Shown one piece after another: positions 38,801 through 61,600 of a stretch of DNA of 64,000 bases. Source of the stretch: a virus. Taxonomy: Duplodnaviria; Caudoviricetes. Where the stretch lies: the IMG/VR virus record IMGVR_UViG_3300028591_000108, positions 64,001 through 128,000 of that record, one strand, 5' to 3'. Under the pieces are notes generated by a model. That model made no database searches and had not been told where the DNA came from. It saw only the letters and a program-made list of their open reading frames with translations. Each line of letters starts with the position of its first letter. The stretch's first letter is position 1. The translations under genes were made by a program, and so were the position numbers.

Positions 38801-39082
38801 ATGAAAAAAGCTATTACAATTACCAACGCCGAAAGCGAAAACATATCGCGTCTATTTTATAAATATAACGCTTATATGAATATGTTAGAATACCTTGCAG
38901 CACGTATTACTGATAGTACTATTTATGAAAAGAAATGGGAAGAAGCCGCAAATATTTGGATTGAACTAGATCGCGCAAAAGTCGCTGTTGAAAAGAAATA
39001 TAAGCCTGCCGGTGATTGGGACAGATACGAATTTAATTTTGATGATTCGCAGGTGGTGTTTATTAAAGATGAGAACTCATGA
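38801..39082 (+). CDS. Radical SAM maturase partner protein (CXXX-repeat modification system protein-like)
   Basis: 93-aa helical protein ending YEFNFDDSQVVF, overlapping the radical SAM start. The resemblance to the TIGR04116 partner is from memory. Confidence 0.5.
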   Translation: MKKAITITNAESENISRLFYKYNAYMNMLEYLAARITDSTIYEKKWEEAANIWIELDRAKVAVEKKYKPAGDWDRYEFNFDDSQVVFIKDENS

Positions 39083-40358
39083 TTATTCCACCGAAATTAT
39101 CGAACGTTATCGTGACGAAGACCCAAAGGCAGTATGTCGTAATATTACATTTTAGGTAACAGATGATTGTTGTTTAAAATGTTCTTATTGTTATTAGACT
39201 CATAAAGGTCATGCTATGATGACCACTGAAGTGGCTAAATCAATTGTTGATTTATTATTTAGATTGTATGATGAAAATAATGAAGATATGGTAATAAATC
39301 ATCATACTTATGGCATTGTATTAGATATGATCGGCGGCGAACCCTTCATGAACGTAGAAGTCATGGATTATATTGTAGATTATTTTATTAAAGAATGTTA
39401 TCGTCGTGATCATATTTGGCTTACTAATTTTAGAATTAGTATTAGTACTAATGGTCTACTTTATTTTGAGCCATAGGTATAGGCATTTTTAAAAAAATAT
39501 GCAAATTTAATTAGTATGAATGTCACAATTGATGGGCCAAAAGAGATACATGACCTTTGTCGAGTAGATTTTTCTAACAATGGTAGCTTTGATCGTGCTA
39601 TCGCCGCATGGGAGGACTGGTATATAATTAAACATAATAATATACCAGATACTAAAATAACAATTGCTCCTGAAAATTTACCTAAAATGGGAGAAATATT
39701 TAATTTCTTTTTATCAAAAGGATGCAAATCTATTCATGCCAACCCTATTTTTGAGCATAAATGGACCACAGAAGAAGCTAGTTTATATTATAAAATATTA
39801 ATTAAATTAGCTGACAAGCTATTGGAAGTAGACGGCGCAGAAAGCTCCTTATTCTCTGAGTTCAAAGGAAATCCACTTCCAGAATCAGACACTAATAACT
39901 ATTGTGGCGGTACTTCTGCAATGCTAGCTTTTGACCCACAAGGATTGGCATATCCATGTTTACGTTATATGGCTAGTTCATTAGATACTAATCGAAAGCC
40001 TTTAATTATTGGCAATACAGATGGTATTTATAATACTCCAGAATATCGTGCAATATATGATGATATGCAAACAGTTACACGCCAATCGCAATCAACGCAA
40101 GAGTGTTTAGAATGTCCAGTGGCTTCAGGCTGCTAGTGGTGTAGTGCTGAAAATTATAATGAATTTGGTACCTATAATAAGCGTAGTACTAACATATGCT
40201 GGATGCACCGTGCTGAAGCACTCGCGGGTGTATACTACTGGAACAACTATTATAGGAAACATAATTTACCATAGCGTAAAAAATTACATTTACCGGTAGG
40301 TCTGGCAATGCAAATAATTACATTAAAAGAATATAATAAGTTATTATTATTAACTTAA
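39069..40358 (+). CDS. Radical SAM/SPASM peptide maturase (CXXX-repeat target family-like, 6 TAG)
   Basis: ITF-Q-VTDDCCLKCSYCY-Q (CxxxCxxC), GGEP, STNG, TIDG. SPASM cysteines YCGG, YPC, CLECPVASGC-Q-WC...IC. Confidence 0.85.
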
Positions 40359-40459
40359 ATATTTGACTTTTTTCAATTTTTATGTTATAATAAATAAAAG
40401 ATTAGGAAAGGAACTAATCTTTTAAAATATTTTTTCATTACATGAGGAGGTAATGAGAT

Positions 40460-41502: not shown

Positions 41503-41588
41503 TGCCCGTAGGTGTGCGGCTGCACGGGCGGTCTCTAAAACCGCGGCCTCTGAAGCGAACGGACTGGGTTCGACTCCCAGGCGGGCAG
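41503..41588 (+). tRNA. Amber suppressor tRNA, anticodon CTA (predicted Gln-inserting)
   Basis: Acceptor TGCCCGT/GCGGGCA + G73, D stem GTGT/GCAC, anticodon arm GCGGT-CTCTAAA-ACCGC, 19-nt variable region, T arm CTGGG-TTCGACT-CCCAG. Confidence 0.85.
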
Positions 41589-43512: not shown

Positions 43513-43628
43513 TAGACGTATCAGCAATATTCTTCGCTTTGGGAGCCCGTCAAGTGTTGGTTCGATTCCAACCCTCCCAACTGATGGGAGGTCGCTCAAT
43601 TGGTAGAAGCGCGGTTATAGTACGTCTA
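43513..43628 (+). ncRNA. CAGCAA-stem RNA copy 2 with circularly permuted tRNA module (YrlA/Y-RNA-like)
   Basis: TAGACGTA/TACGTCTA stem encloses a T arm (GTTGG-TTCGATT-CCAAC), a closed acceptor hairpin CCTCCCA-ACTGA-TGGGAGG, then a D arm (GCTCAATTGGTAGAAGC). Confidence 0.7.
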
Positions 43629-43633
43629 GTTTT

Positions 43634-43707
43634 GGCCCGGTAGCTCAGTCCAGTAGAGCGTCTGACCGTTAATCAGAAAGTCCCAGGAGCAAAGCCTGGT
43701 CGGGCCG
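43634..43707 (+). tRNA. trnN: tRNA-Asn(GTT), atypical C33 and T loop
   Basis: GGCCCGG/TCGGGCC, TCTGA-CCGTTAA-TCAGA, T loop AGCAAAG. Confidence 0.75.
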
Positions 43708-48076: not shown

Positions 48077-48219
48077 CTTTCCTTGAGCGGAAATTTCCGC
48101 TCGTTATGCCCAGATGGTGAACCAGTGAACACCATCTGGTTTAAAAAAATTTAGTAAACTGAAAGAAAAAAAAATAGTTTGTTTACTTTAATAATACTCT
48201 TTATATGGAGGTGAGCGAT

Positions 48220-48826
48220 ATGAAAAAATGGGAAAAATTTTCGGATAAAGAATTAGAAATTATCGTTCAAAATAGCATTTCATATAGAGAGGTTGCACAA
48301 AAATTAGGATATGCAGAACGTAGTGGCGGTGGGTGTGATGCCGCGCGTGAAATGATTGAAGCTAAGGGTTTTAATATAGACCATTTTTTAGGTCAAGGAT
48401 GGAATAAAAGTAATTTTGATTATGAGCGTTTTCAAGCAGGTAAAGTAATTAAAAGTGCCGCTGCAATTCCAGCTTTAGTACAATTACGAGGACATAAATG
48501 TGAGAATTGTGGTGCAGAAACTTGGTTAGGAAATCCTATTCCATTAGAAGTACATCATATTAACGGTGACAGATTAAATAATACATTAGAGAACTTACAG
48601 CTGTTATGTCCTAATTGTCATGCTCTTACTGATAATTTTAAGGGTAAAAATAACACTGGTGACAAAAAAAGTAGAAGACGAAGTATTAGTAGAAGCACTT
48701 AAAAATAGTTCTAGTATTCGTCAAGCATTAATTTCTGTTGGACTAGCGGGTCGCGGCGGAAACTATGAACGTGCTCACGAATTAATTGATAAATATAATA
48801 TTACTAAATTTCAAAAAGGTGAGTAA
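48220..48826 (+). CDS. HNH homing endonuclease, frameshift at A7 run 48664-48670
   Basis: CENC...LEVHHINGDRLNN.LENLQLLCPNCH. The C-terminal domain (KNSSSIRQAL...GGNY) resembles the N-terminus (QNSISYREVA...GGG) but lies in the +1 frame. Confidence 0.8.
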
Positions 48827-50013: not shown

Positions 50014-50159
50014 AGGAGTGTAAGATAACGGTAGTCGCGCGGTCTCCGGGGCGATAGTGTAAAGAACACGCTAGGAAAGCAAGGGCCTAGTAATTGAAGG
50101 GCAGTACTGAGGCGCTCCACCAAAAACCGCTCGTGTTGGTTCGAATCCAGCCGCTCCTG
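50014..50159 (+). tRNA. trnW: tRNA-Trp(CCA) interrupted by a 75-nt tRNA-like insert (50048-50122) between positions 35/36
   Basis: Exon 1 AGGAGTG...GCGGT-CTCC and exon 2 AAA-ACCGC...GTTGG-TTCGAAT-CCAGC-CGCTCCT-G join to give the loop CTCCAAA. Confidence 0.8.
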
Positions 50160-50163
50160 CTTA

Positions 50164-50908: not shown

Positions 50909-50979
50909 GGGGATATAGTATAACAGTAAAACAGTAGCTTTGCAAGCTTCAGACCGGGGAGCGTCACCCCGTATCTCCA
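50909..50979 (+). tRNA. trnA: tRNA-Ala(TGC)
   Basis: GGGGATA/TATCTCC with G3:U70, loop TTTGCAA, atypical T loop. Confidence 0.75.
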
Positions 50980-50989
50980 CATTATTATA

Positions 50990-51060
50990 GGCTCCGAAAT
51001 CTGGCGGCCGGATACTTGTCTGCAAAACTTGTTTAGTCAGTTCGACTCTGACCGGAGCCT
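50990..51060 (+). tRNA. trnC: tRNA-Cys(GCA)
   Basis: GGCTCCG/CGGAGCC + U73, loop CTGCAAA, weak anticodon stem. Confidence 0.7.
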
Positions 51061-52179: not shown

Positions 52180-52309
52180 TCCACGGTGGCGGAATAGGTA
52201 GACGCTAGAAAAGCTCGGCGCTCGACAGGACAGAAGCGTAGGGTTGCCACCCTGTCGGTGGATGCACGTATGTGTTACCCATATAAGGTGCAAATCCTTA
52301 TCCGTGGAA
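52180..52309 (+). ncRNA. tRNA-like RNA with ~75-nt expanded anticodon domain
   Basis: Acceptor TCCACGG/CCGTGGA, Leu-like D arm GCGGAATAGGTAGACGC, T arm TAAGG-TGCAAAT-CCTTA, no 7-nt anticodon loop. Confidence 0.6.
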
Positions 52310-52315
52310 TTATAA

Positions 52316-52388
52316 CGAGAATGTGGTGTAATCTGGTAACACGGGTGCTTCGGGAGCACCAGTTGCGGTTCAAATCCGACATTTTCGA
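52316..52388 (+). tRNA. trnP: tRNA-Pro(CGG)
   Basis: GGTGC-TTCGGGA-GCACC, acceptor CGAGAATG/CATTTTCG, irregular T stem. Confidence 0.7.
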
Positions 52389-52393
52389 CACAA

Positions 52394-52501
52394 TAGACGG
52401 TTACAGCAATTATTGCATACAAGGTGTCATTGGTTCAAATCCAATCTTCTCCATTGGAGAAGTAGCTCAATTGGTAGAGCAATTGATTATGAAACTGTCT
52501 A
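52394..52501 (+). ncRNA. CAGCAA-stem RNA copy 5 with circularly permuted tRNA module (YrlA/Y-RNA-like)
   Basis: TAGACGGTT/AACTGTCTA stem, T arm ATTGG-TTCAAAT-CCAAT, closed acceptor CTTCTCC-ATT-GGAGAAG, D arm GCTC-AATTGGTA-GAGC. Confidence 0.72.
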
Positions 52502-52508
52502 GTATTTA

Positions 52509-52601
52509 TAGGCCATTACAGCAAATTATATATAAATGGTGAAAGAAATGTTTGAGAAACATAACTGAGAAGGTTCGATCCCTTCAAATTTAAATGGCCT
52601 A
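52509..52601 (+). ncRNA. CAGCAA-stem RNA copy 6 with T-arm cargo
   Basis: TAGGCCATT-ACAGCAA...GAAGG-TTCGATC-CCTTC...AATGGCCTA. Confidence 0.62.
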
Positions 52602-52723
52602 GTTTTAGTTGAATATTCGCTCCGTTCTGGAGCTAATAGATTGCCGCGTTGGATTGCTCCTATTTGAAAGAGGCAGAGTAGTATCTGCAACTCTTCCGCG
52701 GCGTTTTTCTTATTGGAGGAATT

Positions 52724-52909
52724 ATGGAAGATAAATTAAAAGGAATTTATGGCTGTTTAAAAATAATGGATATGATGCTTTGTAATTATACTTATGATCC
52801 ATCTCATGGCGTGATACCATTTAAATCTACACAAGAAATGGCAAAATATTTCAGAGCTATGCTACACGCAATTTTACCAGAGGAATATAGATATTATAAA
52901 GGAGAATGA
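52724..52909 (+). CDS. Hypothetical protein
   Basis: RBS GGAGG, TAG-free. Confidence 0.55.
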   Translation: MEDKLKGIYGCLKIMDMMLCNYTYDPSHGVIPFKSTQEMAKYFRAMLHAILPEEYRYYKGE

Positions 52910-52994
52910 CACTATGGCGGAATGGTAACGCACCGACCTGCTAAGTCGAGGTTGCTTGTAAAAGGGTATGCACGTTCGAGCCGTGCTAGTGTCG
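52908..52994 (+). tRNA. trnS: tRNA-Ser(GCT)
   Basis: GACACTA/TAGTGTC, CGAC-CTGCTAA-GTCG, long variable arm. Confidence 0.82.
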
Positions 52995-52999
52995 CTTAT

Positions 53000-53153
53000 A
53001 GTCCCTTAGCGTAATGGTAGCGCAGTGGACTTTCGGCTCATAGTTTATTTGGCAAAATACTTTTAAACTAGTTGAGAGATATCAAGAGAAATAGGTTCGA
53101 TCCCTATTGAGCCGACGACTCCACACGTGTTGGTCCGATTCCAACAGGGACTG
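53000..53153 (+). tRNA. trnQ: tRNA-Gln(TTG) interrupted by an 83-nt tRNA-shaped insert (53034-53116) between positions 35/36
   Basis: Exon 1 AGTCCCT...GTGGA-CTTT and exon 2 GAC-TCCAC...GTTGG-TCCGATT-CCAAC-AGGGACT-G join to give the loop CTTTGAC. Confidence 0.82.
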
Positions 53154-53171
53154 CTTTTAGGAGGGATTATT

Positions 53172-53495
53172 ATGGCTAAAGATGAAACTCCAATTTATGA
53201 AATCTATGTAATGAGTGAACCTTGGCATTTGGATTCTGATAAGTTTCCAAGCTGTGGTCATCGAGAACGAGTAGGTTTTTACTACGAAAAAGATACTGCT
53301 ATTCGCGCAGTAGAAGAAAATTGGTGTGACCTTCAAGACTATTATGCTCAAGCCGCAGAGGTTTGTAAAGTAGAACCTGGTCTTTATTCCGTTCCCTCTC
53401 GGCGTGAATATTGGTACTTCCTATGGAACCAACAAGAAAAGAAATTTGAACTCGCGCGAAAGCCTAAGCTTGGATTATGGGAGGCAGGGTATTGA
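53172..53495 (+). CDS. Hypothetical protein
   Basis: RBS GGAGG before ATG 53172. The track start lies inside tRNA-Gln. Confidence 0.7.
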   Translation: MAKDETPIYEIYVMSEPWHLDSDKFPSCGHRERVGFYYEKDTAIRAVEENWCDLQDYYAQAAEVCKVEPGLYSVPSRREYWYFLWNQQEKKFELARKPKLGLWEAGY

Positions 53496-53935
53496 AACTT
53501 TATACATCTTATTGGGCGCAAGTGCGTAATTTTCCAAAAAACCTAGTCGGCCTTTCAACAACTATATGGAACCCACGCTGGAGAAAAATGGGTAAAGATG
53601 CGCGTGGAGTAATATGTGTTGATTGCCCTCCTTTTAAACCAGGACATAGCTGCGATGGTTTATGTAATGGGAAGTGTAATCCAAAACATCCAGAAGATTG
53701 CTTATTCCTCCAACACTATAAAGCTCAACTAGATAAAATTAATCCAATTACAATTCAAAATAGTTTAGGGAAACTTGCTGCACAAATTTGTCATGATGAA
53801 CATCTACCAGATGTAGATTTTGCTTTTTTATTTTATGAAACACCAACTAATCCTTGTAGTGAGCGAGTAATGGTACAACGTTGGTTCCAAGAACATGGAT
53901 ATGAAATTAAAGAATGGCAGAAACTAAAATCTTAA
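53492..53935 (+). CDS. DUF488-like protein
   Basis: LYTSYWA...PRW...Y..QL......FLFYETP...CSER..V..WF. Confidence 0.6.
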   Translation: MKLYTSYWAQVRNFPKNLVGLSTTIWNPRWRKMGKDARGVICVDCPPFKPGHSCDGLCNGKCNPKHPEDCLFLQHYKAQLDKINPITIQNSLGKLAAQICHDEHLPDVDFAFLFYETPTNPCSERVMVQRWFQEHGYEIKEWQKLKS

Positions 53936-54143
53936 AGCAAGCCTTAGCTTTTAATAAAAGTTTTATGCGTGCTTGTTATCATCCTAAAGCTCGTGTGCGA
54001 AAAAAGAATTATAAGCGCGCGAAACATATTATGAATTGGCAATGTAAAATTTATGGACATATGCTAGTTCCACAAAAATGGTTAAATATTTGACTTTATC
54101 GAAAATTTCTGGTATAATATAAATACAGAAAGGAGAGATAGAG

Positions 54144-54506
54144 ATGCGTAAGTATAGCATGAAGTCCCATAAGCGTAAAAATCATCAGCGTTGGTTTAAT
54201 CAGTATGTGCGTTATATCAACAAGAACATAGAAGAGGATGACCTTTGGCTTGGGCGTTTCTGTGTAAAACAGAAACGCACAAAAATGGAATGGTTTGAAG
54301 ACGGTAGCGGCGGTCTTATGACCGCAGAGCTTATTATGTGGGATAAAAAAACCCATACTGTTCGCGTTGGATGGTATAATGGCCTTGACATGGATTGGAA
54401 ATTTTGGCGCGATTTTAACCAGTTTATTATTGAAGATTGCAAAGTCTGGGAAGAAGAACCTAATGTGCGCGAAAACCGCGTCGACTATCGAAAGGAGCGT
54501 AAATGA
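54144..54506 (+). CDS. Hypothetical protein
   Basis: Promoter 54090, RBS AAGGAG. Confidence 0.7.
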   Translation: MRKYSMKSHKRKNHQRWFNQYVRYINKNIEEDDLWLGRFCVKQKRTKMEWFEDGSGGLMTAELIMWDKKTHTVRVGWYNGLDMDWKFWRDFNQFIIEDCKVWEEEPNVRENRVDYRKERK

Positions 54507-55506: not shown

Positions 55507-56322
55507 ATGAATTTTGATATTTATACTGAAGAAATGAGTAAATCGGTGTGGGATAAAGCTTTCTTTATGGATAAAATTATCGGTGCGAAGCTTGTTATTG
55601 ACTTTGGATGCGCTGACGGCGCTATGATTCGTATGCTTGCGCCGTTGTTTCCCAACACCACTTTCTATGGTTATGACATTAATGATGATTTGATTATTGA
55701 GGCTTGGCGCAAACTTGAATCTCCTGCGGATAAAAATACTTTCTTCTTTCATAAGGAGAGAAGCTTTGCCGATCGACATGATAGTTTTGAAGATATGATT
55801 GCTATGGCAATGCAGTATTACAAGCCTGATGAAATTTGTATTAACTTTTCTTCTGTGCTACATGAAGTTTTTTCTTCTAGCCCTAGTGGTAAAGAAACTA
55901 TTCGACGCCTTGTTAAAGAACTGCAGCCGAAGTACATTACTATTCGAGATATGTATTGGCACGCGGTTTCTAGCGTAAATGTACTACGTTGCTCAGAAGA
56001 TAAGATCCGAGCGCAGGTAGAAGAAAAGTATCTCAATGATTATGAAGCTACGTTTGATTATATACACTCTCCCCAGTCTATTACTCATTTCCTTATGAAG
56101 TACCAGTGGAAAGACAATGGATGGGAAGATGAAATGAAAGAAAACTATTTTTCCTATACTATTGAGGATTTTCTCAATGCTATGTGCCGATGGCAGTATA
56201 CTACTGTATTTGAATCTCATTATCAGCTTCCTTATTTGACAGAAAAATGGAAGAATGAATATGATTTCTTTGTGCCAGAAGCGCATACTCATGCACAGTT
56301 TATTCTTAGGAGGAATGATTAA
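55507..56322 (+). CDS. Class I SAM-dependent methyltransferase
   Basis: VIDFGCADG motif I, GYDIN, NFSSVLHEV, ITIRD. Confidence 0.8.
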   Translation: MNFDIYTEEMSKSVWDKAFFMDKIIGAKLVIDFGCADGAMIRMLAPLFPNTTFYGYDINDDLIIEAWRKLESPADKNTFFFHKERSFADRHDSFEDMIAMAMQYYKPDEICINFSSVLHEVFSSSPSGKETIRRLVKELQPKYITIRDMYWHAVSSVNVLRCSEDKIRAQVEEKYLNDYEATFDYIHSPQSITHFLMKYQWKDNGWEDEMKENYFSYTIEDFLNAMCRWQYTTVFESHYQLPYLTEKWKNEYDFFVPEAHTHAQFILRRND

Positions 56323-56849
56323 TGGCGATTTTATATATTCTTTGCGGCCCGAGCGCTTGTGGTAAAAGCACTTGGCGCGACACTTTTATTGCAGAGCATA
56401 GCGATAAGGATATTCGATATGTTTCTCGTGACGAAATTCGTTTTTCTATGCTTGAAGAAGGCGAAGATTATTTTGCTCATGAGAAAGAAGTTTTCAAGAA
56501 GTTTGTTAGCACCTTGGCGCAGACTCTTGTTGACGGATTTGACGTAATTGCAGACGCTACTCATCTTAATGAGTTTTCGCGCAAGAAGCTTACCAACGCA
56601 CTTGACCGTATTGGCGTAGATTATGAAATTAAGTATGTAGTATTCTATACCTTGTACTCCGAATGCTGTGAGCGGGATGCAATGCGCGAAGGCATGGCAT
56701 ACGTAGGTCCTGATGTTATTCGTGGAATGTTCCGCTCCTTTAAGGCGCCGACTCTTGAAGAAGATCGTCGCGCCACAGAAATTATTGAAGTAGGAAATAA
56801 GAAAGGAGATTTTTCCTTTCTGATAGACCCCTACTGGAAGGAGATGTAA
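56322..56849 (+). CDS. Polynucleotide kinase-like P-loop kinase (AAA_33)
   Basis: LCGPSACGKSTW, VSRDEIR, ADATHL..R and C.ERD..R, as in T4 Pnk-type kinase domains. Confidence 0.82.
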   Translation: MAILYILCGPSACGKSTWRDTFIAEHSDKDIRYVSRDEIRFSMLEEGEDYFAHEKEVFKKFVSTLAQTLVDGFDVIADATHLNEFSRKKLTNALDRIGVDYEIKYVVFYTLYSECCERDAMREGMAYVGPDVIRGMFRSFKAPTLEEDRRATEIIEVGNKKGDFSFLIDPYWKEM

Positions 56850-56850
56850 G

Positions 56851-57417
56851 ATGGGTGATATTTGGCTCTCGTCAGATTTACATCTGATGCATAATAAGCC
56901 ATTCTTATACGAACCTCGTGGCTTTACTTCTACCGAGGAAATGTGTGAAGCTATTGTAGAACGTTGGAACTCAGTTGTAAGAGACGAAGATCTTGTTTAT
57001 AATCTAGGCGATATTGCTCTTAGCGATGTTGATGCAGCTATTCCTTATCTACAGCGGCTTAAGGGACACCAAATATGGATTCTCGGGAACCACGATACTT
57101 TAGGAAAGATAGAGAAAATCTTGCCTGCATGTCCCAAAATCCAGCTTCTTGGCACTGAAAGGACTTCTTATGCCACTGTCATTAAGAGCGGAAAATGGAG
57201 CTTTTATCTATCGCATTATCCCACTTTGACTGGAAATAACGAAACTTGGCGTAAAGTAGCTAATCTTTGTGGCCATAGTCATACGCAAGACAAATGGGTT
57301 GACTGGGACAAAATGTGCTATCATGTAGAGATGGATGCCCATGACTGCTATCCAGTAAATTTGGAACATATTAAAGATCAAATTCGAAAGAAATATTTGA
57401 CTTCTCTTGAAAATTGA
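56851..57417 (+). CDS. Calcineurin-like metallophosphoesterase
   Basis: SDLH, LGD, GNHD, SHYP, GHSH motifs. Confidence 0.88.
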   Translation: MGDIWLSSDLHLMHNKPFLYEPRGFTSTEEMCEAIVERWNSVVRDEDLVYNLGDIALSDVDAAIPYLQRLKGHQIWILGNHDTLGKIEKILPACPKIQLLGTERTSYATVIKSGKWSFYLSHYPTLTGNNETWRKVANLCGHSHTQDKWVDWDKMCYHVEMDAHDCYPVNLEHIKDQIRKKYLTSLEN

Positions 57418-57556
57418 GTTATAATAATTATGTTAAAAGATAATAAATGTTTGATTGGATCACCATGCAAACATTGTGATCCTTCAGTATGTTTATTTTA
57501 TAAACACTCTTACAGTCGTGACAACGACCAAGATGAAAAGGAGAATAAAAAGGAAA

Positions 57557-57919
57557 ATGAAAGATTGCGTATGTATGCACCCCGGACATGTGGAATATCT
57601 GGGACTAGGAGAACTAGAGACTGTTGAAATTCCAATAAATTATCATTATGAACGGCATCATTGTGGTGGCGGTTATACATGCGATGATTTTAAAAAAGAG
57701 CTTATTCGTCCTAAAGTATTCCTACTTACTGGGTTTCACCCTGGACGCTTATTTAAAGTTATACACGGTCTTTCTGAACGAATTCAAGTTTGTCCATTTT
57801 GTGGTCGTAATACAGCTGAGTGGCATGAAGAGCATGATGTAGATGAATATCCGCAAGCTTTTATTGATTTATATGAACGTCCCTCAAATGTGATGGAAGG
57901 TATAGAAGGATATTTATAA
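57557..57919 (+). CDS. Hypothetical protein (Cys/His motifs)
   Basis: Likely start at ATG 57557. CPFCG motif. Confidence 0.55.
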   Translation: MKDCVCMHPGHVEYLGLGELETVEIPINYHYERHHCGGGYTCDDFKKELIRPKVFLLTGFHPGRLFKVIHGLSERIQVCPFCGRNTAEWHEEHDVDEYPQAFIDLYERPSNVMEGIEGYL

Positions 57920-57963
57920 TTCTACAATCTAGTTTTAAACCAAGATGAAAAAGGAGAAAGAAA

Positions 57964-58218
57964 ATGATCTATCGCCGGAAGTCAGAGACAGTTGAAGCAA
58001 TCATGTTTGACGGCTCTAATTTAGAGCAAATTCGGCAGTTCCTGAAAGATTATTTCAAATATGGCCATATTATGGAAGATGGACATTTATTTTTAATGCT
58101 AAATAGTAATAATGCGCTTTATAGCGCACAGGTTTATGATTATATTGTAGTAGATAAAATGCATGGATTTACTATGAATAAGAAAGCCTTTGAAAATACT
58201 TATATCCCGCGGTCTTGA
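57964..58218 (+). CDS. Hypothetical phage protein
   Basis: YRRK...VEAIMFDG.N...DYIV......F...Y pattern. Confidence 0.65.
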   Translation: MIYRRKSETVEAIMFDGSNLEQIRQFLKDYFKYGHIMEDGHLFLMLNSNNALYSAQVYDYIVVDKMHGFTMNKKAFENTYIPRS

Positions 58219-58247
58219 TAAAGACTAAGATGAAAAGGAGAAAAAAA

Positions 58248-59741
58248 ATGAACGAACTACTAAAGAATCTGAAGACTGAAACTAATTACCGTTATACCGA
58301 GAACGGCGCCCTGACTCATAAGTCTACGCTAAATAAAGTGCTGGATATGTTTGCTATGGGCGGTTCTATGCGTAATCGCTCTGACGATGATGTTATTAAC
58401 ATGTTCAAGCAGGCATACGAAGAGGATAGGACTCTTGCGCTAAAGTGTCTCTTCTATCTGCGCGATGTACGCGGCGGTGCAGGTGAGAGACGATTTTTCC
58501 GCATTTGTATCAAGTGGCTTGCTAATGAATGTCCGGAAGAGATGGAACACCTAATTCCCCTCATTAGTGAATATGGCCGCTACGACGACCTTTTTGAGCT
58601 ATTTGGCACTCCTTGCGAAGCCGCGATGATAGGATATATTTTCCATGTCCTTAATAAGAATGAAGATCATCTTATTTATAAATGGATGCCTTCGATCAAT
58701 GCATCTTCTAAAGAAAGCAAAATTCGTGGACGTAAATTCGTGCATGAATTCGGCATGACTGAGCGTCAGTATCGTCAGATGCTTTCTGAAGGCCGCAAAG
58801 CCTGTCACTTGGTCGAAACTCTTATGAGCCAGAATCAGTGGAACCAGATTGCATTTGATAAGCTGCCTTCTCGCGCAGGTCTTCTATATAAGAATGCTTT
58901 CATGCGCCGTGAGGAAACTAAAGAACGCTATGCTGAGTTTATGTCCCGCAAGGACACTAAGGTAAATGCGAGTGTACTGAATCCTGTTGAAATCGCGCAC
59001 CAGATTCTTGGTACGTGGAGTACTCCCTCTGCTACTGAGCGTCAGGCTTGGCAGAAGTATTGGGATAATCTGAAAGATTATTACAATGGCCGCGAAGAGC
59101 CTGGCATTGCAGTAGTTGATGTCAGTGGCAGTATGAGTGGCACTCCTATGGAAGCCGCAGTTTCTATGGGTGCGTATATTGCCGAACGCGGGAAAGGCCC
59201 GTTCCAGAATCATTTTATTACTTTCAGCGCTAATCCGCAGCTAGTAGAATTTGAAGGCGTAGATATCTATGATAAGTTTAAACGTGCGGTACGTGCAGAC
59301 TGGGGACAGAATACGAACCTTGAAGCAGTATTTGATATGCTGCTGGAGACTGGTCTACGCAATCATGTGCCAGATGCCGAAATGCCGAAGACGATTTACA
59401 TATTTTCGGATATGGAATTCGATCACGGTTTGACTTGCGGCGCGCGTTCCCTTGATCGTTGGGACTATAATATGCGTTCTATGAATCGCTCGCAGATTGA
59501 TACACTCATTGAGGCTAAGACTAAAGAATGGATGTGGGCAGGATATACCGCACCGAGAGTAATCTTCTGGAACCTCAATGCTCGGCAGCCCAACATTCCC
59601 GCTATTGGCCCGGGATTCTCCTATTGTAGCGGTTTCTCTATGAGCGCGCTTGAAGGAGTACTTTCCGGTAAAGATGGTATCAAAATGATGCGAACTGTAC
59701 TAGAAGGAGAGCGCTATGCGCCAATTTCTAGTGTTCTATAA
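58248..59741 (+). CDS. DUF2828 / TROVE(Ro60-like)-vWA domain protein
   Basis: TENGA..H.ST...LD.F, LFYLRDVRGGAGERR.FR, EYGRYDDL, KWMPS, vWA MIDAS DVSGSM, NTNL..VFD, SDMEFD, FWNL. Confidence 0.82.
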   Translation: MNELLKNLKTETNYRYTENGALTHKSTLNKVLDMFAMGGSMRNRSDDDVINMFKQAYEEDRTLALKCLFYLRDVRGGAGERRFFRICIKWLANECPEEMEHLIPLISEYGRYDDLFELFGTPCEAAMIGYIFHVLNKNEDHLIYKWMPSINASSKESKIRGRKFVHEFGMTERQYRQMLSEGRKACHLVETLMSQNQWNQIAFDKLPSRAGLLYKNAFMRREETKERYAEFMSRKDTKVNASVLNPVEIAHQILGTWSTPSATERQAWQKYWDNLKDYYNGREEPGIAVVDVSGSMSGTPMEAAVSMGAYIAERGKGPFQNHFITFSANPQLVEFEGVDIYDKFKRAVRADWGQNTNLEAVFDMLLETGLRNHVPDAEMPKTIYIFSDMEFDHGLTCGARSLDRWDYNMRSMNRSQIDTLIEAKTKEWMWAGYTAPRVIFWNLNARQPNIPAIGPGFSYCSGFSMSALEGVLSGKDGIKMMRTVLEGERYAPISSVL

Positions 59742-59823
59742 ATTCTCTCTTTCTGAAAAGTCAAGCAATCAAATGCTTGACTTTTTTCATATTTTTTGAT
59801 ATAATTAATTTATAAGGAGGAAG

Positions 59824-60585
59824 ATGATGGATATTATAGAAGCAGTTAAAAGACATCATCAATGGGTAAAAGATAAAGGTTATGAAACAGTAATGACTGT
59901 CTTAATTGGCAGCCAAAATTATTGTTTAGACAATGAAAATAGTGATATTGATACTTTTACTTTTATTTTTCCTACCATTGACGATTTATCAGCCGCGTGC
60001 GAACCGGATAGTGGTGAATTTGAAGTCGAAGATGGAAAATGTATGTATAAAGATATTCGACTTGCGCTTAATCTTTTAAAGAAAGCATCTCCAAATAGTG
60101 TTGAATGCTTTGTCGGAGCGTATAAATATTATGAACCTAAATATGCTACTATCTTAGAAAAATATTTAGATAATGAGTATATTTTAAATAAAATGGTACA
60201 TTGCAATTATTCTCATATGTTATATGCAATGGCTGGAATGGCACATCAGCTTACTAAACGCAATATGCCTGCCGGAAAACGCTATTCTCATGCCTTACGT
60301 CTATATAGTATGAAAGATAACTTTTTGAATTTTACAGATACATCTCAATTGCTTAAATTATTGCCTCGTGATTATCAAGAAGCTCTACATGCTAAGAGAG
60401 ATACATTGGAATCTCATAATGCATATTATAATGATGGCTGTGAAAGTATTGCAAATCTTTTAGACGATTGTCGCAATGAGTTTAAAAAAACAGTTATTCA
60501 ACAAGCGATTGAAACAGAAGGAAAACAATTAATTGAATTAATGCAATATGAATTAATGCATTATTATATTAAATATATTTTATAA
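59824..60585 (+). CDS. Pol-beta superfamily nucleotidyltransferase (RlaP/YcgL-like)
   Basis: IGSQNY.LD.E.SDIDT, KDIR....LL.K.SPN.VE, K.YSHALRL. Confidence 0.75.
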   Translation: MMDIIEAVKRHHQWVKDKGYETVMTVLIGSQNYCLDNENSDIDTFTFIFPTIDDLSAACEPDSGEFEVEDGKCMYKDIRLALNLLKKASPNSVECFVGAYKYYEPKYATILEKYLDNEYILNKMVHCNYSHMLYAMAGMAHQLTKRNMPAGKRYSHALRLYSMKDNFLNFTDTSQLLKLLPRDYQEALHAKRDTLESHNAYYNDGCESIANLLDDCRNEFKKTVIQQAIETEGKQLIELMQYELMHYYIKYIL

Positions 60586-60596
60586 GAGGAGACATA

Positions 60597-61001
60597 ATGG
60601 ATCTAAAAATTCACAATGGGATGCGCGTCCTATATAAACACAATGGGCAATGGTGCGTTGGAAAACTTACAAATCAAGAGTCGCCAGTGCTTACTGAAAA
60701 GGGATTATTTGTATTTGTTATTCCTAAAAACTATATGGATGCAGAAGAAGTACCATATCTGCATGATGTAGAAATTAATGATTTGTTCCTAGAAGCGGTC
60801 CCAGTAGAAGATTGGATGGCTCAGTATGGCTATCTAATGCCAAAAGAAGATTATATTAATTTCATTAAAAGCGAAGACTTTGATAAGAATGTTGAACGTG
60901 CGTATGTATCAGATGGTGAATATTATTATTATAATGTAAACAAATACTCAGAACAATGGTTGAATAAACAGCCATTTGATTTTATAGTGAGGGAAGAATG
61001 A
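60597..61001 (+). CDS. Hypothetical protein
   Basis: RBS GAGGAG. Confidence 0.7.
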   Translation: MDLKIHNGMRVLYKHNGQWCVGKLTNQESPVLTEKGLFVFVIPKNYMDAEEVPYLHDVEINDLFLEAVPVEDWMAQYGYLMPKEDYINFIKSEDFDKNVERAYVSDGEYYYYNVNKYSEQWLNKQPFDFIVREE

Positions 61002-61600
61002 AACCGAAATTAACATGGCATAATATCCTAGGCCATTGGAAAACAATTCGTACTCATAGAAAATGGGTTAGATATTATTGCAATCTTGCTGGTATCCGTT
61101 GGCGCGGATTAAAACATGATTTATCGAAATATTCGCCCACTGAATTTTTTGAATCCGCGCGTTATTGGACTGGGACTAGTTCTCCAATAAACGAAGCTAA
61201 GAAACAGCAGGGCTATTCGCGCGCATGGCTACATCATCGCGGCCGCAATCCTCATCATTGGGCATACTGGGCAGATAATTTTAGCGAAGGGCTGACAGTA
61301 TATCCGATGCCCATGAATGATTTTGTAGAATTGGTTTGTGATTTTCTCGCGGCTGGTCGGGCTTATAGTGGTGACATGTTTTCATATAGTAATGAGCGTC
61401 TTTGGTGGCTTCATGAGCGTGATCATGGTTCGCGCGCAATGAACGAGAAAAATAAGAAAATGCTTGATGTTATTTTTTCTGACTTAGAGTTCGCGGATAA
61501 TCATCTGCTGAGTGGTTGTCCTACTGGACTATTAACCATGACTCCAGAAACCCTAATTAAAACTGGTTACATTCAAGAAGTTTGGAGGGCTAATCAATGA
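60998..61600 (+). CDS. DUF5662-like HD-fold protein
   Basis: H..TI.TH, HDLSKYSPTEF, AWLHH.GRNPHHW.YW, ELVCD..AA. Confidence 0.72.
   Translation: MKPKLTWHNILGHWKTIRTHRKWVRYYCNLAGIRWRGLKHDLSKYSPTEFFESARYWTGTSSPINEAKKQQGYSRAWLHHRGRNPHHWAYWADNFSEGLTVYPMPMNDFVELVCDFLAAGRAYSGDMFSYSNERLWWLHERDHGSRAMNEKNKKMLDVIFSDLEFADNHLLSGCPTGLLTMTPETLIKTGYIQEVWRANQ

Follow-up and report, generated by a model that had tools for sequence, protein, structure and literature searches.

A tRNA-shaped insert in the anticodon loop of a phage tRNA-Gln gene as a candidate intron for tRNA end-processing enzymes

Can a tRNA gene that is interrupted in its anticodon by a second, tRNA-like sequence still be the source of a functional tRNA, and how would the interruption be removed? 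This question is raised by a tRNA-Gln(UUG) gene at positions 53000-53153 of a 64,000-nucleotide stretch of phage DNA, here called the window, which comprises bases 64001-128000 of the 141.9-kb IMG/VR virus record IMGVR_UViG_3300028591_000108 (Caudoviricetes; completeness estimate 78%). A preliminary description of this DNA, made from its letters alone, had noticed an 83-nt insert in the anticodon of this gene and had proposed that it is a cloverleaf-shaped intron. Our analysis leads to a reading that we hold with about even confidence, namely that the insert is a mobile intron which mimics a tRNA and would be excised by the enzymes that process tRNA ends, after which the tRNA halves would be ligated.

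The nested tRNA-Gln gene

The interrupted gene and the insert are composed of the following elements.

53000..53033, + strand: 5' exon of tRNA-Gln(UUG), with the 5' strand of the acceptor stem, the D arm, the 5' strand of the anticodon stem and loop bases 32-35 (CTTT)
53034..53116, + strand: tRNA-shaped insert of 83 nt, a candidate intron (Rfam RF00005; called as a whole tRNA by ARAGORN; five diverged copies elsewhere)
53034..53040, + strand: 5' strand of the inner acceptor stem, CGGCTCA, which pairs with 53108-53114; its first base is the first base of the insert
53043..53058, + strand: inner D arm with a 4-bp stem and an 8-nt loop (ARAGORN, Rfam; stem invariant in five alleles)
53060..53088, + strand: inner central arm, a 5-bp stem (53060-53064/53084-53088) closing a 19-nt loop
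53091..53107, + strand: inner T arm, ATAGG-TTCGATC-CCTAT, with a canonical T loop
53108..53114, + strand: 3' strand of the inner acceptor stem, TGAGCCG (ARAGORN, Rfam, allele alignment)
53115..53116, + strand: tail of the insert, discriminator A73 and C74; the 3' exon begins directly after it
53117..53153, + strand: 3' exon of tRNA-Gln(UUG), with loop bases 36-38 (GAC), the 3' strand of the anticodon stem, the variable loop, the T arm, the 3' strand of the acceptor stem and discriminator G

When the exons 53000-53033 and 53117-53153 were joined, ARAGORN recognized a 71-nt tRNA-Gln(UUG) with the anticodon arm GTGGA-CTTTGAC-TCCAC; the split point lies between anticodon bases 35 and 36. The joined exons are 94-96% identical to intact 71-nt alleles from related phages (L002, L005, L006, L011 and others), and with the loop masked their closest tRNA bodies are those of Gln(ttg). 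Run on the full gene without intron mode, ARAGORN reports a tRNA for the inner 83 nt (53034-53116) alone, and in intron mode it places the boundary off by one base and calls Glu(UUC). This one-base ambiguity is settled by the intact alleles of the relatives; the junction is therefore CTTT/GAC, which gives Gln(UUG), and the predicted spliced exon-exon junction reads GGACTTTGACTCC. The preliminary description had stated that excision of 53034-53116 yields a clean tRNA-Gln and had proposed to run ARAGORN on the full, joined and insert-only sequences. The joined exons were indeed returned as tRNA-Gln(ttg) and the insert as a whole tRNA, and the intact alleles of the relatives agree with the former.

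The insert itself matched the tRNA family RF00005 with 43.0 bits (gathering score 29; E 9e-8 for 701 bases searched). The match runs end to end over model positions 1-71 and covers 53034-53115 of the window, so that the score lies above the gathering score over the full model. In a search of Rfam at E up to 1, only the tRNA family was found for the insert and there was no match to an intron or ribozyme. The claims that the excised 83 nt form a cloverleaf of their own, with acceptor stem, D arm and T arm, and that they are far too short for a group I intron were thus confirmed. The features of such an intron, i.e. a catalytic core P3-P9 with a G-binding site, a length of at least ~200 nt and a match to Intron_gpI, were absent from the insert. 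The two ends of the insert lie on opposite sides of an internal loop, CTTT / ACGAC, from which the 7-bp helix rises. The insert lacks the combination of two 3-nt bulges, a 4-bp helix and an available splicing endonuclease that defines a bulge-helix-bulge (BHB) motif. The absence of a BHB had also been noted before, and it is borne out by the geometry of the junctions and by the lack of EndA in five related phage genomes.

The central arm of the insert can be folded in two ways. The Rfam alignment, with 3 bp and 21 unaligned nt, resembles the fold with the 19-nt loop. The alternative fold proposed by ARAGORN has a stem 53061-53065/53073-53077, whose 5 bp are A-U and G.U pairs only, and a loop AACUAGU with A33, which the program reads as anticodon CUA with a long variable arm. 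The closing pair 53064-53084 (alignment columns 65-85) is UA, UG or CG across the alleles from related phages that carry the same insert; this compensatory change supports the 19-nt-loop fold, whereas only a one-sided change is seen for the CUA fold. The CUA reading is lost in two of these alleles (L064 and L104) and in the related L097 family, in which the arm forms a hairpin with a loop of 4 nt; the central arm is not conserved in L104 or L097. The set of features expected of a decoding tRNA (U33, a purine at 37, a stable 5-bp stem, and a conserved anticodon and identity) was not found in the insert, and the inner CUA is probably not a decoder. The non-decoding 19-nt loop of the preliminary description is the fold favored by covariation. 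As judged from these comparisons, the insert has an acceptor stem, a D arm, a T arm and an N73-C74 tail and is without a working anticodon arm.

Intact and interrupted alleles in related phages

Relatives were found through the downstream open reading frame (ORF) and by scanning viral and metagenome contigs for a 21-base word from the exon. A BLAST search of GenBank phages with window 52300-54300 gave no match. The orthologous tRNA-Gln gene was recovered with definable ends on both sides at 57 loci; the counts exclude a few others that were truncated or more diverged. Some of the loci are the same contig in two collections (viral and metagenome), and the arguments below rest on distinct sequences. 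The copies with our type of insert surfaced only via the exon 21-mer in metagenome contigs; viral contigs that were scanned for exact patterns matched neither the junction of insert and exon nor the 3' part of the insert.

The tRNA-Gln gene was intact (71 nt) at 25 of the 57 loci. Small inserts, which fall into seven families, were present at 28 loci, and a much longer one was found in addition:

own-type insert, 83 nt: 6 loci (own, L054, L057, L064, L078, L104)
tRNA-like insert, 86 nt, unrelated to the own type: 9 loci
acceptor-plus-T-arm minihelix, 43 nt, ending in ACCA: 5 loci
insert of 66 nt, ending in ACCA: 3 loci
insert of 76 nt, ending in GCCA: 2 loci
insert of 70 nt: 2 loci
insert of 71 nt: 1 locus
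ORF-bearing insert, 487 nt, after the D arm of tRNA-Gln: 4 loci (L038:877-1434, L044:4496-5053, L051, L094)

The small inserts always leave CTT/TGAC or CTTT/GAC, and no base of the loop is lost or duplicated. The nested 154-nt architecture occurs, with sequence differences, on five other metagenome contigs (L054, L057, L064, L078, L104); because of these diverged copies the nested tRNA is not an assembly chimera. The search for intact versus interrupted alleles in related phages, which had been suggested in the preliminary description, brought up both kinds. The further idea that the insert gates the supply of Gln-tRNA received no support; close relatives have intact alleles or different inserts on identical exons.

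The 487-nt insert is also present in three loci that are too truncated or diverged for a definition of their ends (L043, L085, L091). It begins with a ribosome-binding site and an ORF (METKICTKCG...) and is probably a small mobile element of the nuclease type. Loci L056 and L100 have yet another longer insert after the CTT of the tRNA-Gln loop, the 5' end of which is not tRNA-like.

Next we asked how the alleles vary. In an alignment of five own-type alleles, 99.5% of the cells were paired in the nested double cloverleaf; for slid controls the value was 37-49%. Two pairs of the outer anticodon stem have compensatory changes, as does one pair each of the outer and the inner T stem; the last of these is a change from UA to CG in L064. 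In the inner acceptor stem, L057 has a U.G at one pair. The most diverged copy is that of L104. Its inner acceptor stem CGGCTTG/CAAGCCG is changed on both sides in two pairs and still pairs, and its inner T stem is wholly different from that of our copy, yet paired. The exons around this diverged insert are identical to an intact haplotype.

The exons of the interrupted alleles are in the same state as those of intact alleles: 99.0% of the 21 cloverleaf pairs are kept in 10 distinct exon sequences of the former and 99.6% in 11 distinct sequences of the latter. From this comparison, the interrupted tRNA-Gln alleles are not decaying. Three exon haplotypes are common to intact alleles and to up to four insert families each (five across all three), which means that turnover of the inserts, or recombination, is fast.

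Interrupted tRNA genes in general were collected by ARAGORN in intron mode, which gave 82 candidates in the related loci; 39 distinct sequences among these have an inner acceptor-like stem and a T arm. All insert families share an acceptor-like stem of 7 bp that begins directly at the 5' junction, a hairpin resembling a T arm directly ahead of the 3' strand of that stem, and a short tail. The other insert families are without an anticodon arm or have only a short hairpin in its place. Acceptor stem, T arm and tail together are the module that is recognized by RNase P, RNase Z and the CCA enzyme. In a simple boundary rule, the 5' junction is placed just before the inner base +1 and the anticodon loop is set to 7 nt. 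In all Gln families, the anticodon deduced by this rule agrees with the intact tRNA body that is most similar when the loop is masked. The rule also fits Asn (5 loci), Lys (L009; 1 of 2), Leu-UAA (3), Val, and Thr (1 of 2). In five rows of this test the script set the register wrongly, and two rows were ambiguous (the L055 family, and L017 at 7428, 8769, 12016 and 14737). The labels given by ARAGORN in intron mode (Glu, Pro, Thr, His, Trp and others) were rejected, since they mostly disagree with the boundary rule and with the tRNA bodies.

The inserts lie at varying positions of the anticodon loop, from 32/33 to 36/37. The tail between the inner stem and the 3' exon is most commonly NCCA; NCAA, N-C, N-T, A-A and N alone also occur. 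The own-type insert has a tail of AC or CC in its six alleles, with a discriminator that varies between A and C. For comparison we took a census of the free-standing tRNA genes of the clade (window 41.5-53.2 kb and L002-L105). Among 524 distinct genes, 33% encode CCA; of the 353 distinct genes without CCA, 282 (80%) have N73-C74, mostly followed by T (N73-C74-U75). As so many CCA-less native genes have N73-C74, the A73-C74 tail of the insert mimics the end of a native tRNA gene. From the C74 followed by T at native ends it follows that either C74 is under selection in the precursor or the 3' ends are cut behind it. If native 3' processing keeps C74, the predicted 3' splice site at 53116/53117 would be the native cut.

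The window contains a second nested gene, which the boundary rule identifies as tRNA-Trp:

50014-50160: tRNA-Trp(CCA), exons 50014-50047 and 50123-50160, insert 50048-50122

ARAGORN in intron mode miscalls this gene as Leu(CAA). Its 75-nt insert starts with GGGGCGA and ends with CGCTCC-ACCA, and its T arm is weak. The insert in the tRNA-Lys of L009 shares 71% identity with it, shows compensatory changes in the stem and lies one loop position away. Another insert family, in Leu genes, is found at both 35/36 and 32/33. Among the 707 tRNA genes of the related loci, no free-standing tRNA was close enough to be the source of the insert. Taken together, the comparison of the loci makes it about evenly probable, in our judgment, that the insert belongs to a mobile and quickly turning-over set of tRNA- or minihelix-shaped inserts in the anticodon loops of a clade of rumen phages in which TAG encodes Gln.

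A possible route of excision and ligation

The following route would account for a spliced tRNA-Gln. The polycistronic tRNA transcript would fold as a cloverleaf nested in a cloverleaf. Host RNase P would cut 5' of base +1 of the insert (53033/53034) and leave a 3'-OH on the 5' exon. RNase Z or a similar enzyme, the one that makes the 3' ends of the phage tRNAs, would cut after C74 (53116/53117) and leave a 5'-phosphate on the 3' exon; in inserts of the CCA type, the 3'-end endonuclease would cut after A76. The two tRNA halves would be held together by the outer acceptor and anticodon stems, and an ATP-dependent RNA ligase of the Rnl5 type, encoded by the phage, would seal the nick in the anticodon loop and restore CUUUGAC. 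The locus would then be a functional phage tRNA-Gln(UUG) gene with a protein-dependent, tRNA-mimicking intron, for which we see the case as roughly balanced. A 3' cut of the CCA type has a precedent, because RNase Z from T. maritima cuts exactly after A76 of CCA-containing precursors (PMC1540738).

The genes that bear on this route are as follows.

G000:C1:128143-129375, just beyond the end of the window: Rnl5-type RNA ligase (P0003), 410 aa
55507-56322, + strand: methyltransferase (Pfam)
56322-56849, + strand: P-loop AAA_33 kinase (Pfam)
56851-57417, + strand: calcineurin-like phosphoesterase (Pfam)
58215-59741: DUF2828/DUF7788 (TROVE-like) gene (Pfam)
59824..60585, + strand: RlaP-family Pol-beta nucleotidyltransferase, RNA-ligase-associated (PF10127)

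The ligase P0003 has the architecture of the Rnl5 family of DraRnl and NgrRnl, an N-terminal OB module (PF21189, residues 11-92, 77 bits) and a C-terminal nucleotidyltransferase (PF09414, residues 222-400, 77 bits) with the KxDG lysine motif in the form EKIDG. Its nearest solved relative is NgrRnl (PDB 5cot; E 2e-31 over both modules). Against TIGR02306 it scores 110.9 bits, which is below the equivalog cut-off of 151 bits; it is a diverged relative with a predicted substrate preference. Clear homologues of P0003 are present in G001, G003, G005 and G008, and divergent proteins of the same architecture, with scores at or just below the Pfam thresholds, in G002, G004 and G007. The phage encodes a separate ATP DNA ligase in addition. 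Ligases of the Rnl5 type seal breaks with 3'-OH and 5'-PO4 ends (PMC4408790, PMC5397189), so that the ends left by RNase P and RNase Z would suit the phage enzyme; the physiological role of these ligases has been called uncharted (PMC5397189).

The genes for the kinase, the phosphoesterase and RlaP lie 2.4-7.5 kb downstream of tRNA-Gln. The methyltransferase, kinase and phosphoesterase are candidates for trans-acting genes that heal RNA ends; only their proximity suggests a link to the insert. RlaP adds 1-2 nucleotides to damaged RNA 3' ends (preprint 10.64898/2025.12.29.696909). A search for RtcB in the phage's own genome and for an RNase Z-like metallo-beta-lactamase (PF12706) in five phage genomes found neither, while the controls worked. 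For EndA (PF01974), the five related phage genomes gave no match, and among the controls PF01974 was detected only in archaea. Since no gene for RtcB, an RNase Z-like enzyme or EndA was found, excision would fall to host enzymes or to unrecognized phage proteins. Rnl1 (PF09511) had no match in the own genome or the five relatives, and none in any control genome either.

Several points weigh against this route. Our observations concern the anatomy and its covariation, the series of alleles, the boundary rule and the content of genes; every enzymatic step, and splicing itself, is what we infer from sequence. The textbook site of RNase Z is after N73, whereas the 3' cut proposed here is after C74, two bases past the inner acceptor stem. 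Across the families, the predicted 3' cut would be at 1, 2 or 4 nt from the inner stem, and one enzyme of the ruler type cannot explain such variation unless the sequence of the trailer is read. Characterized Rnl5 ligases prefer nicks in a duplex over breaks in a loop (PMC4408790). G001 combines this ligase with an intact tRNA-Gln, so that the genomes show no specific correlation between ligase and insert. The RNA-repair module has an ordinary explanation as a defense against anticodon nucleases of the host. Finally, the shared haplotypes mean that conservation of the exons could partly reflect recent insertion or recombination and not long purifying selection.

Some of the same data can be read in other ways. 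A metal-independent endonuclease from phage or host could leave a 2',3'-cyclic phosphate and a 5'-OH; the kinase and phosphoesterase would heal these ends and the ligase would seal them, in the manner of Pnkp of phage T4 or Pnkp-Hen1 of bacteria. The tRNA array and the ligase are indeed adjoined by genes for a methyltransferase, RlaP, an AAA_33 kinase and two or three calcineurin-like phosphoesterases, and the variable positions (32/33 to 36/37) and tails fit a nuclease other than a tRNA-end ruler. However, this leaves unexplained why every insert mimics a substrate of RNase P and 3' processing, with its flush 7-bp acceptor stem, its T arm and its tail (NCCA or N-C) maintained through compensatory changes. 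Also, no candidate endonuclease was identified, EndA being absent from the five related phage genomes, and we regard such a heal-and-seal pathway as unlikely. It is also rather unlikely that the gene is not spliced at all and that a mobile tRNA-like element merely sits in a dispensable tRNA gene. The inner RNA, a mimic or decoy like Y-RNA, would then be the useful or selfish product, with the tRNA halves as by-products and tRNA-Gln supplied by the host. The intact and interrupted alleles with identical exons, which point to recent insertions or exchanges, would agree with this, as would the YrlA-like tRNA-mimic RNAs (sub-threshold) and the TROVE-like DUF2828 protein of the phage; moreover, the literature has no demonstrated bacterial or phage pathway for such splicing. 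Yet old and diverged copies of the insert, such as L104 when compared with our own, still lie in flawless exons, and in at least a dozen families, from eight tRNA species, the loop is always exactly 7 nt long and the anticodon is the cognate one. As products, minihelices of 43-49 nt would have little to offer, and such an RNA could be expressed equally well from a gene of its own within the tRNA array.

The inner cloverleaf could also be an amber suppressor nested in tRNA-Gln, a decoder of TAG made together with tRNA-Gln or at its expense. ARAGORN reads CUA in 4 of the 6 own-type alleles and TAG is a sense codon in this phage, but the loop AACUAGU, with A33 and G37, sits on a stem of A-U and G.U pairs only. 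L064 folds otherwise, L104 and L097 are without the motif, and the discriminator varies between A and C among the alleles. C1-G72 and the class II shape are unlike the identity of Gln, although TAG aligns with invariant Gln; the other insert families have no anticodon arm at all, or a short hairpin at most. We rejected this interpretation as the principal one because the CUA fold is not conserved and a canonical suppressor is already present at 41503-41588, and we consider it improbable. A self-splicing or self-cleaving RNA, i.e. a group I or group II intron or small flanking ribozymes, is extremely improbable. The anticodon loops of bacterial and phage tRNAs are classic group I sites, and L056 and L100 have long inserts at this very site, as L013 and L014 do in a CUA tRNA; these may be of group I type. 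However, our insert has 83 nt and a sister family 43 nt, Rfam matches only the tRNA family at E up to 1, and the conserved features are those of a tRNA.

How does the proposed tRNA-mimic intron relate to known systems? It shares with group I introns, for example in cyanobacterial tRNA-Leu(UAA) or tRNA-fMet, the site in the anticodon loop, the patchy occurrence in close relatives and the clean restoration of the loop. It differs in that those introns self-splice and have ~200 nt or more with a conserved core, whereas the insert has 83 nt, no core and a match to the tRNA family only. Modules of tRNA shape that direct cuts by RNase P and RNase Z are known from mitochondrial tRNA punctuation, MALAT1 mascRNA and plant t-elements. 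In those cases the flanks are simply released, whereas here they would need to be rejoined into a tRNA. Breaks that host nucleases make in anticodon loops are repaired by Pnkp/Rnl1 of phage T4 and by bacterial Pnkp-Hen1. Like these systems (review PMC3400036), the phage encodes a kinase, a phosphatase and an RNA ligase; unlike them, it would not repair nuclease damage, and its ligase has the Rnl5 and not the Rnl1 architecture. With archaeal and eukaryal tRNA introns (reviews PMC4090602, PMC3400036) the insert would share protein-dependent removal, as proposed here, and ligation of paired halves; variable positions are known in archaea. In contrast to them it has no BHB. Searches for EndA in the five phage genomes and for RtcB in the own genome were negative, the ends are predicted to be 3'-OH/5'-P as opposed to cyclic phosphate/5'-OH, and recognition would be by the tRNA shape of the intron. 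The bacterial Y RNA YrlA (RF02553) likewise mimics a tRNA without decoding and has acceptor, D and T arms, but it stands alone as a gene and its arms are in permuted order, whereas the insert has the normal order inside a tRNA.

The closest likeness is to introns in tRNA genes of Lak megaphages, which were called 'enigmatic'; one of these 'itself may encode a tRNA' and interrupts tRNA-Thr(UGU), and there are alleles without introns (Devoto 2019, PMC6784885). The preliminary description had known of no such intron class. This holds for the splicing route, for which we found no paper in a full-text literature search, and does not hold for the kind of intron, since the Lak example had already been noted (PMC6784885). 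The similarities comprise a TAG-recoded gut phage, an interrupted anticodon loop, an insert predicted as tRNA, intron-less alleles (25 intact loci here) and even the offset of the software boundary by one base. The present phages are of a different lineage (~140-190 kb, rumen) and a different tRNA is interrupted; the likeness to Lak rests on the published description. The Lak paper (PMC6784885) gives no mechanism, boundary rule, allelic series or link to an RNA ligase. The locus is thus an instance, in a new lineage, of a kind that has barely been described, and our contribution consists of a series of alleles for a single gene, a boundary rule compared with tRNA bodies, the match between tail and native end, the movement between tRNAs and the gene context.

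If both groups are taken jointly, we tentatively suggest that this clade and the Lak megaphages may use a third kind of tRNA splicing, distinct from ribozyme and from EndA/BHB introns, a proposal we think possible without expecting it to be right. RNase P and a 3'-end endonuclease (acting after C74 or A76) would excise tRNA-mimic introns, a phage ligase for 3'-OH/5'-P ends would reseal the tRNA, and the introns would be mobile between the anticodon loops of different tRNAs. Such introns may have originated when a repair ligase joined free tRNA-like RNAs into tRNAs broken by nucleases. If this is true, bacterial viruses have a protein-only tRNA splicing by RNase P, a 3'-end endonuclease and an RNA ligase, without a textbook counterpart, and ligases of the Rnl5 type gain a physiological substrate. 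It would also explain the RNA-repair modules beside phage tRNA arrays and many 'missing' or mis-called phage tRNAs, with consequences for estimates of tRNA repertoires and suppressors in recoded phages. The allelic series with intact genes, seven small insert families and an ORF-bearing insert is a natural experiment for splicing and intron mobility, and a tRNA-shaped excisable cassette could serve RNA engineering.

Recoding, tRNA array and neighboring genes

The preliminary description had taken the phage to be recoded for Gln, and this is correct as far as its genes can tell. Reading through TAG increases the longest open frame from 515 to 3087 codons, and in a radical-SAM gene 3 TAG positions align with a Gln that is invariant in 107-108 of 108 homologues. 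From these alignments, TAG is a sense codon for Gln in this phage. The radical-SAM gene (38895-40358) resembles SPASM-type peptide maturases and contains 7 in-frame TAG codons.

The tRNA array comprises ~22 genes on the + strand at 41.5-53.2 kb of the window, as detected by ARAGORN and Rfam. Rfam matches to tRNA above the gathering score that ARAGORN did not report are found at 43634-43707, 50909-50979 and 50990-51060; the tRNA set of the phage exceeds the 18 genes called by ARAGORN. The array and its upstream border include:

40394-40456: Rfam 'cow-rumen-4' RNA (59.6 bits, above gathering score), just upstream of the tRNA array
41503-41588, + strand: canonical amber-suppressor tRNA with U1-A72, G73 and loop CUCUAAA

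The 'cow-rumen-4' RNA fits a rumen origin of the phage. The long variable region of the suppressor tRNA includes CCTCTGAAG, and this variable-arm motif recurs in CUA tRNAs of relatives (L044:1810-1901, L020:6528-6622). In L013 and L014 the CUA tRNA has a 177-nt insert 3' of the anticodon, possibly a group I intron. An ORF for an HNH endonuclease (48205-48702) lies within the array and is a candidate player in the turnover of tRNA alleles.

The RNA repair block extends over 55507-61600 and G000:C1:128143-131038 and contains the methyltransferase, AAA_33 kinase, phosphoesterase, DUF2828/DUF7788, RlaP, DUF5662, the Rnl5-type ligase and another phosphoesterase. All of its genes are without in-frame TAG. 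Two regions gave sub-threshold matches to YrlA, a Y-RNA-like family, at 52394-52504 (34.9 bits, full length, E 1.4e-4) and at 43555-43610 (22.8 bits, partial). Together with the DUF2828/DUF7788 gene, these matches suggest a putative Ro/Y-RNA-like system of the phage. Finally, among the homologues of the radical-SAM protein (P0010, P0011, P0020 and others), several with ~765 aa have intein or homing-endonuclease domains (PF14528, PF14890).

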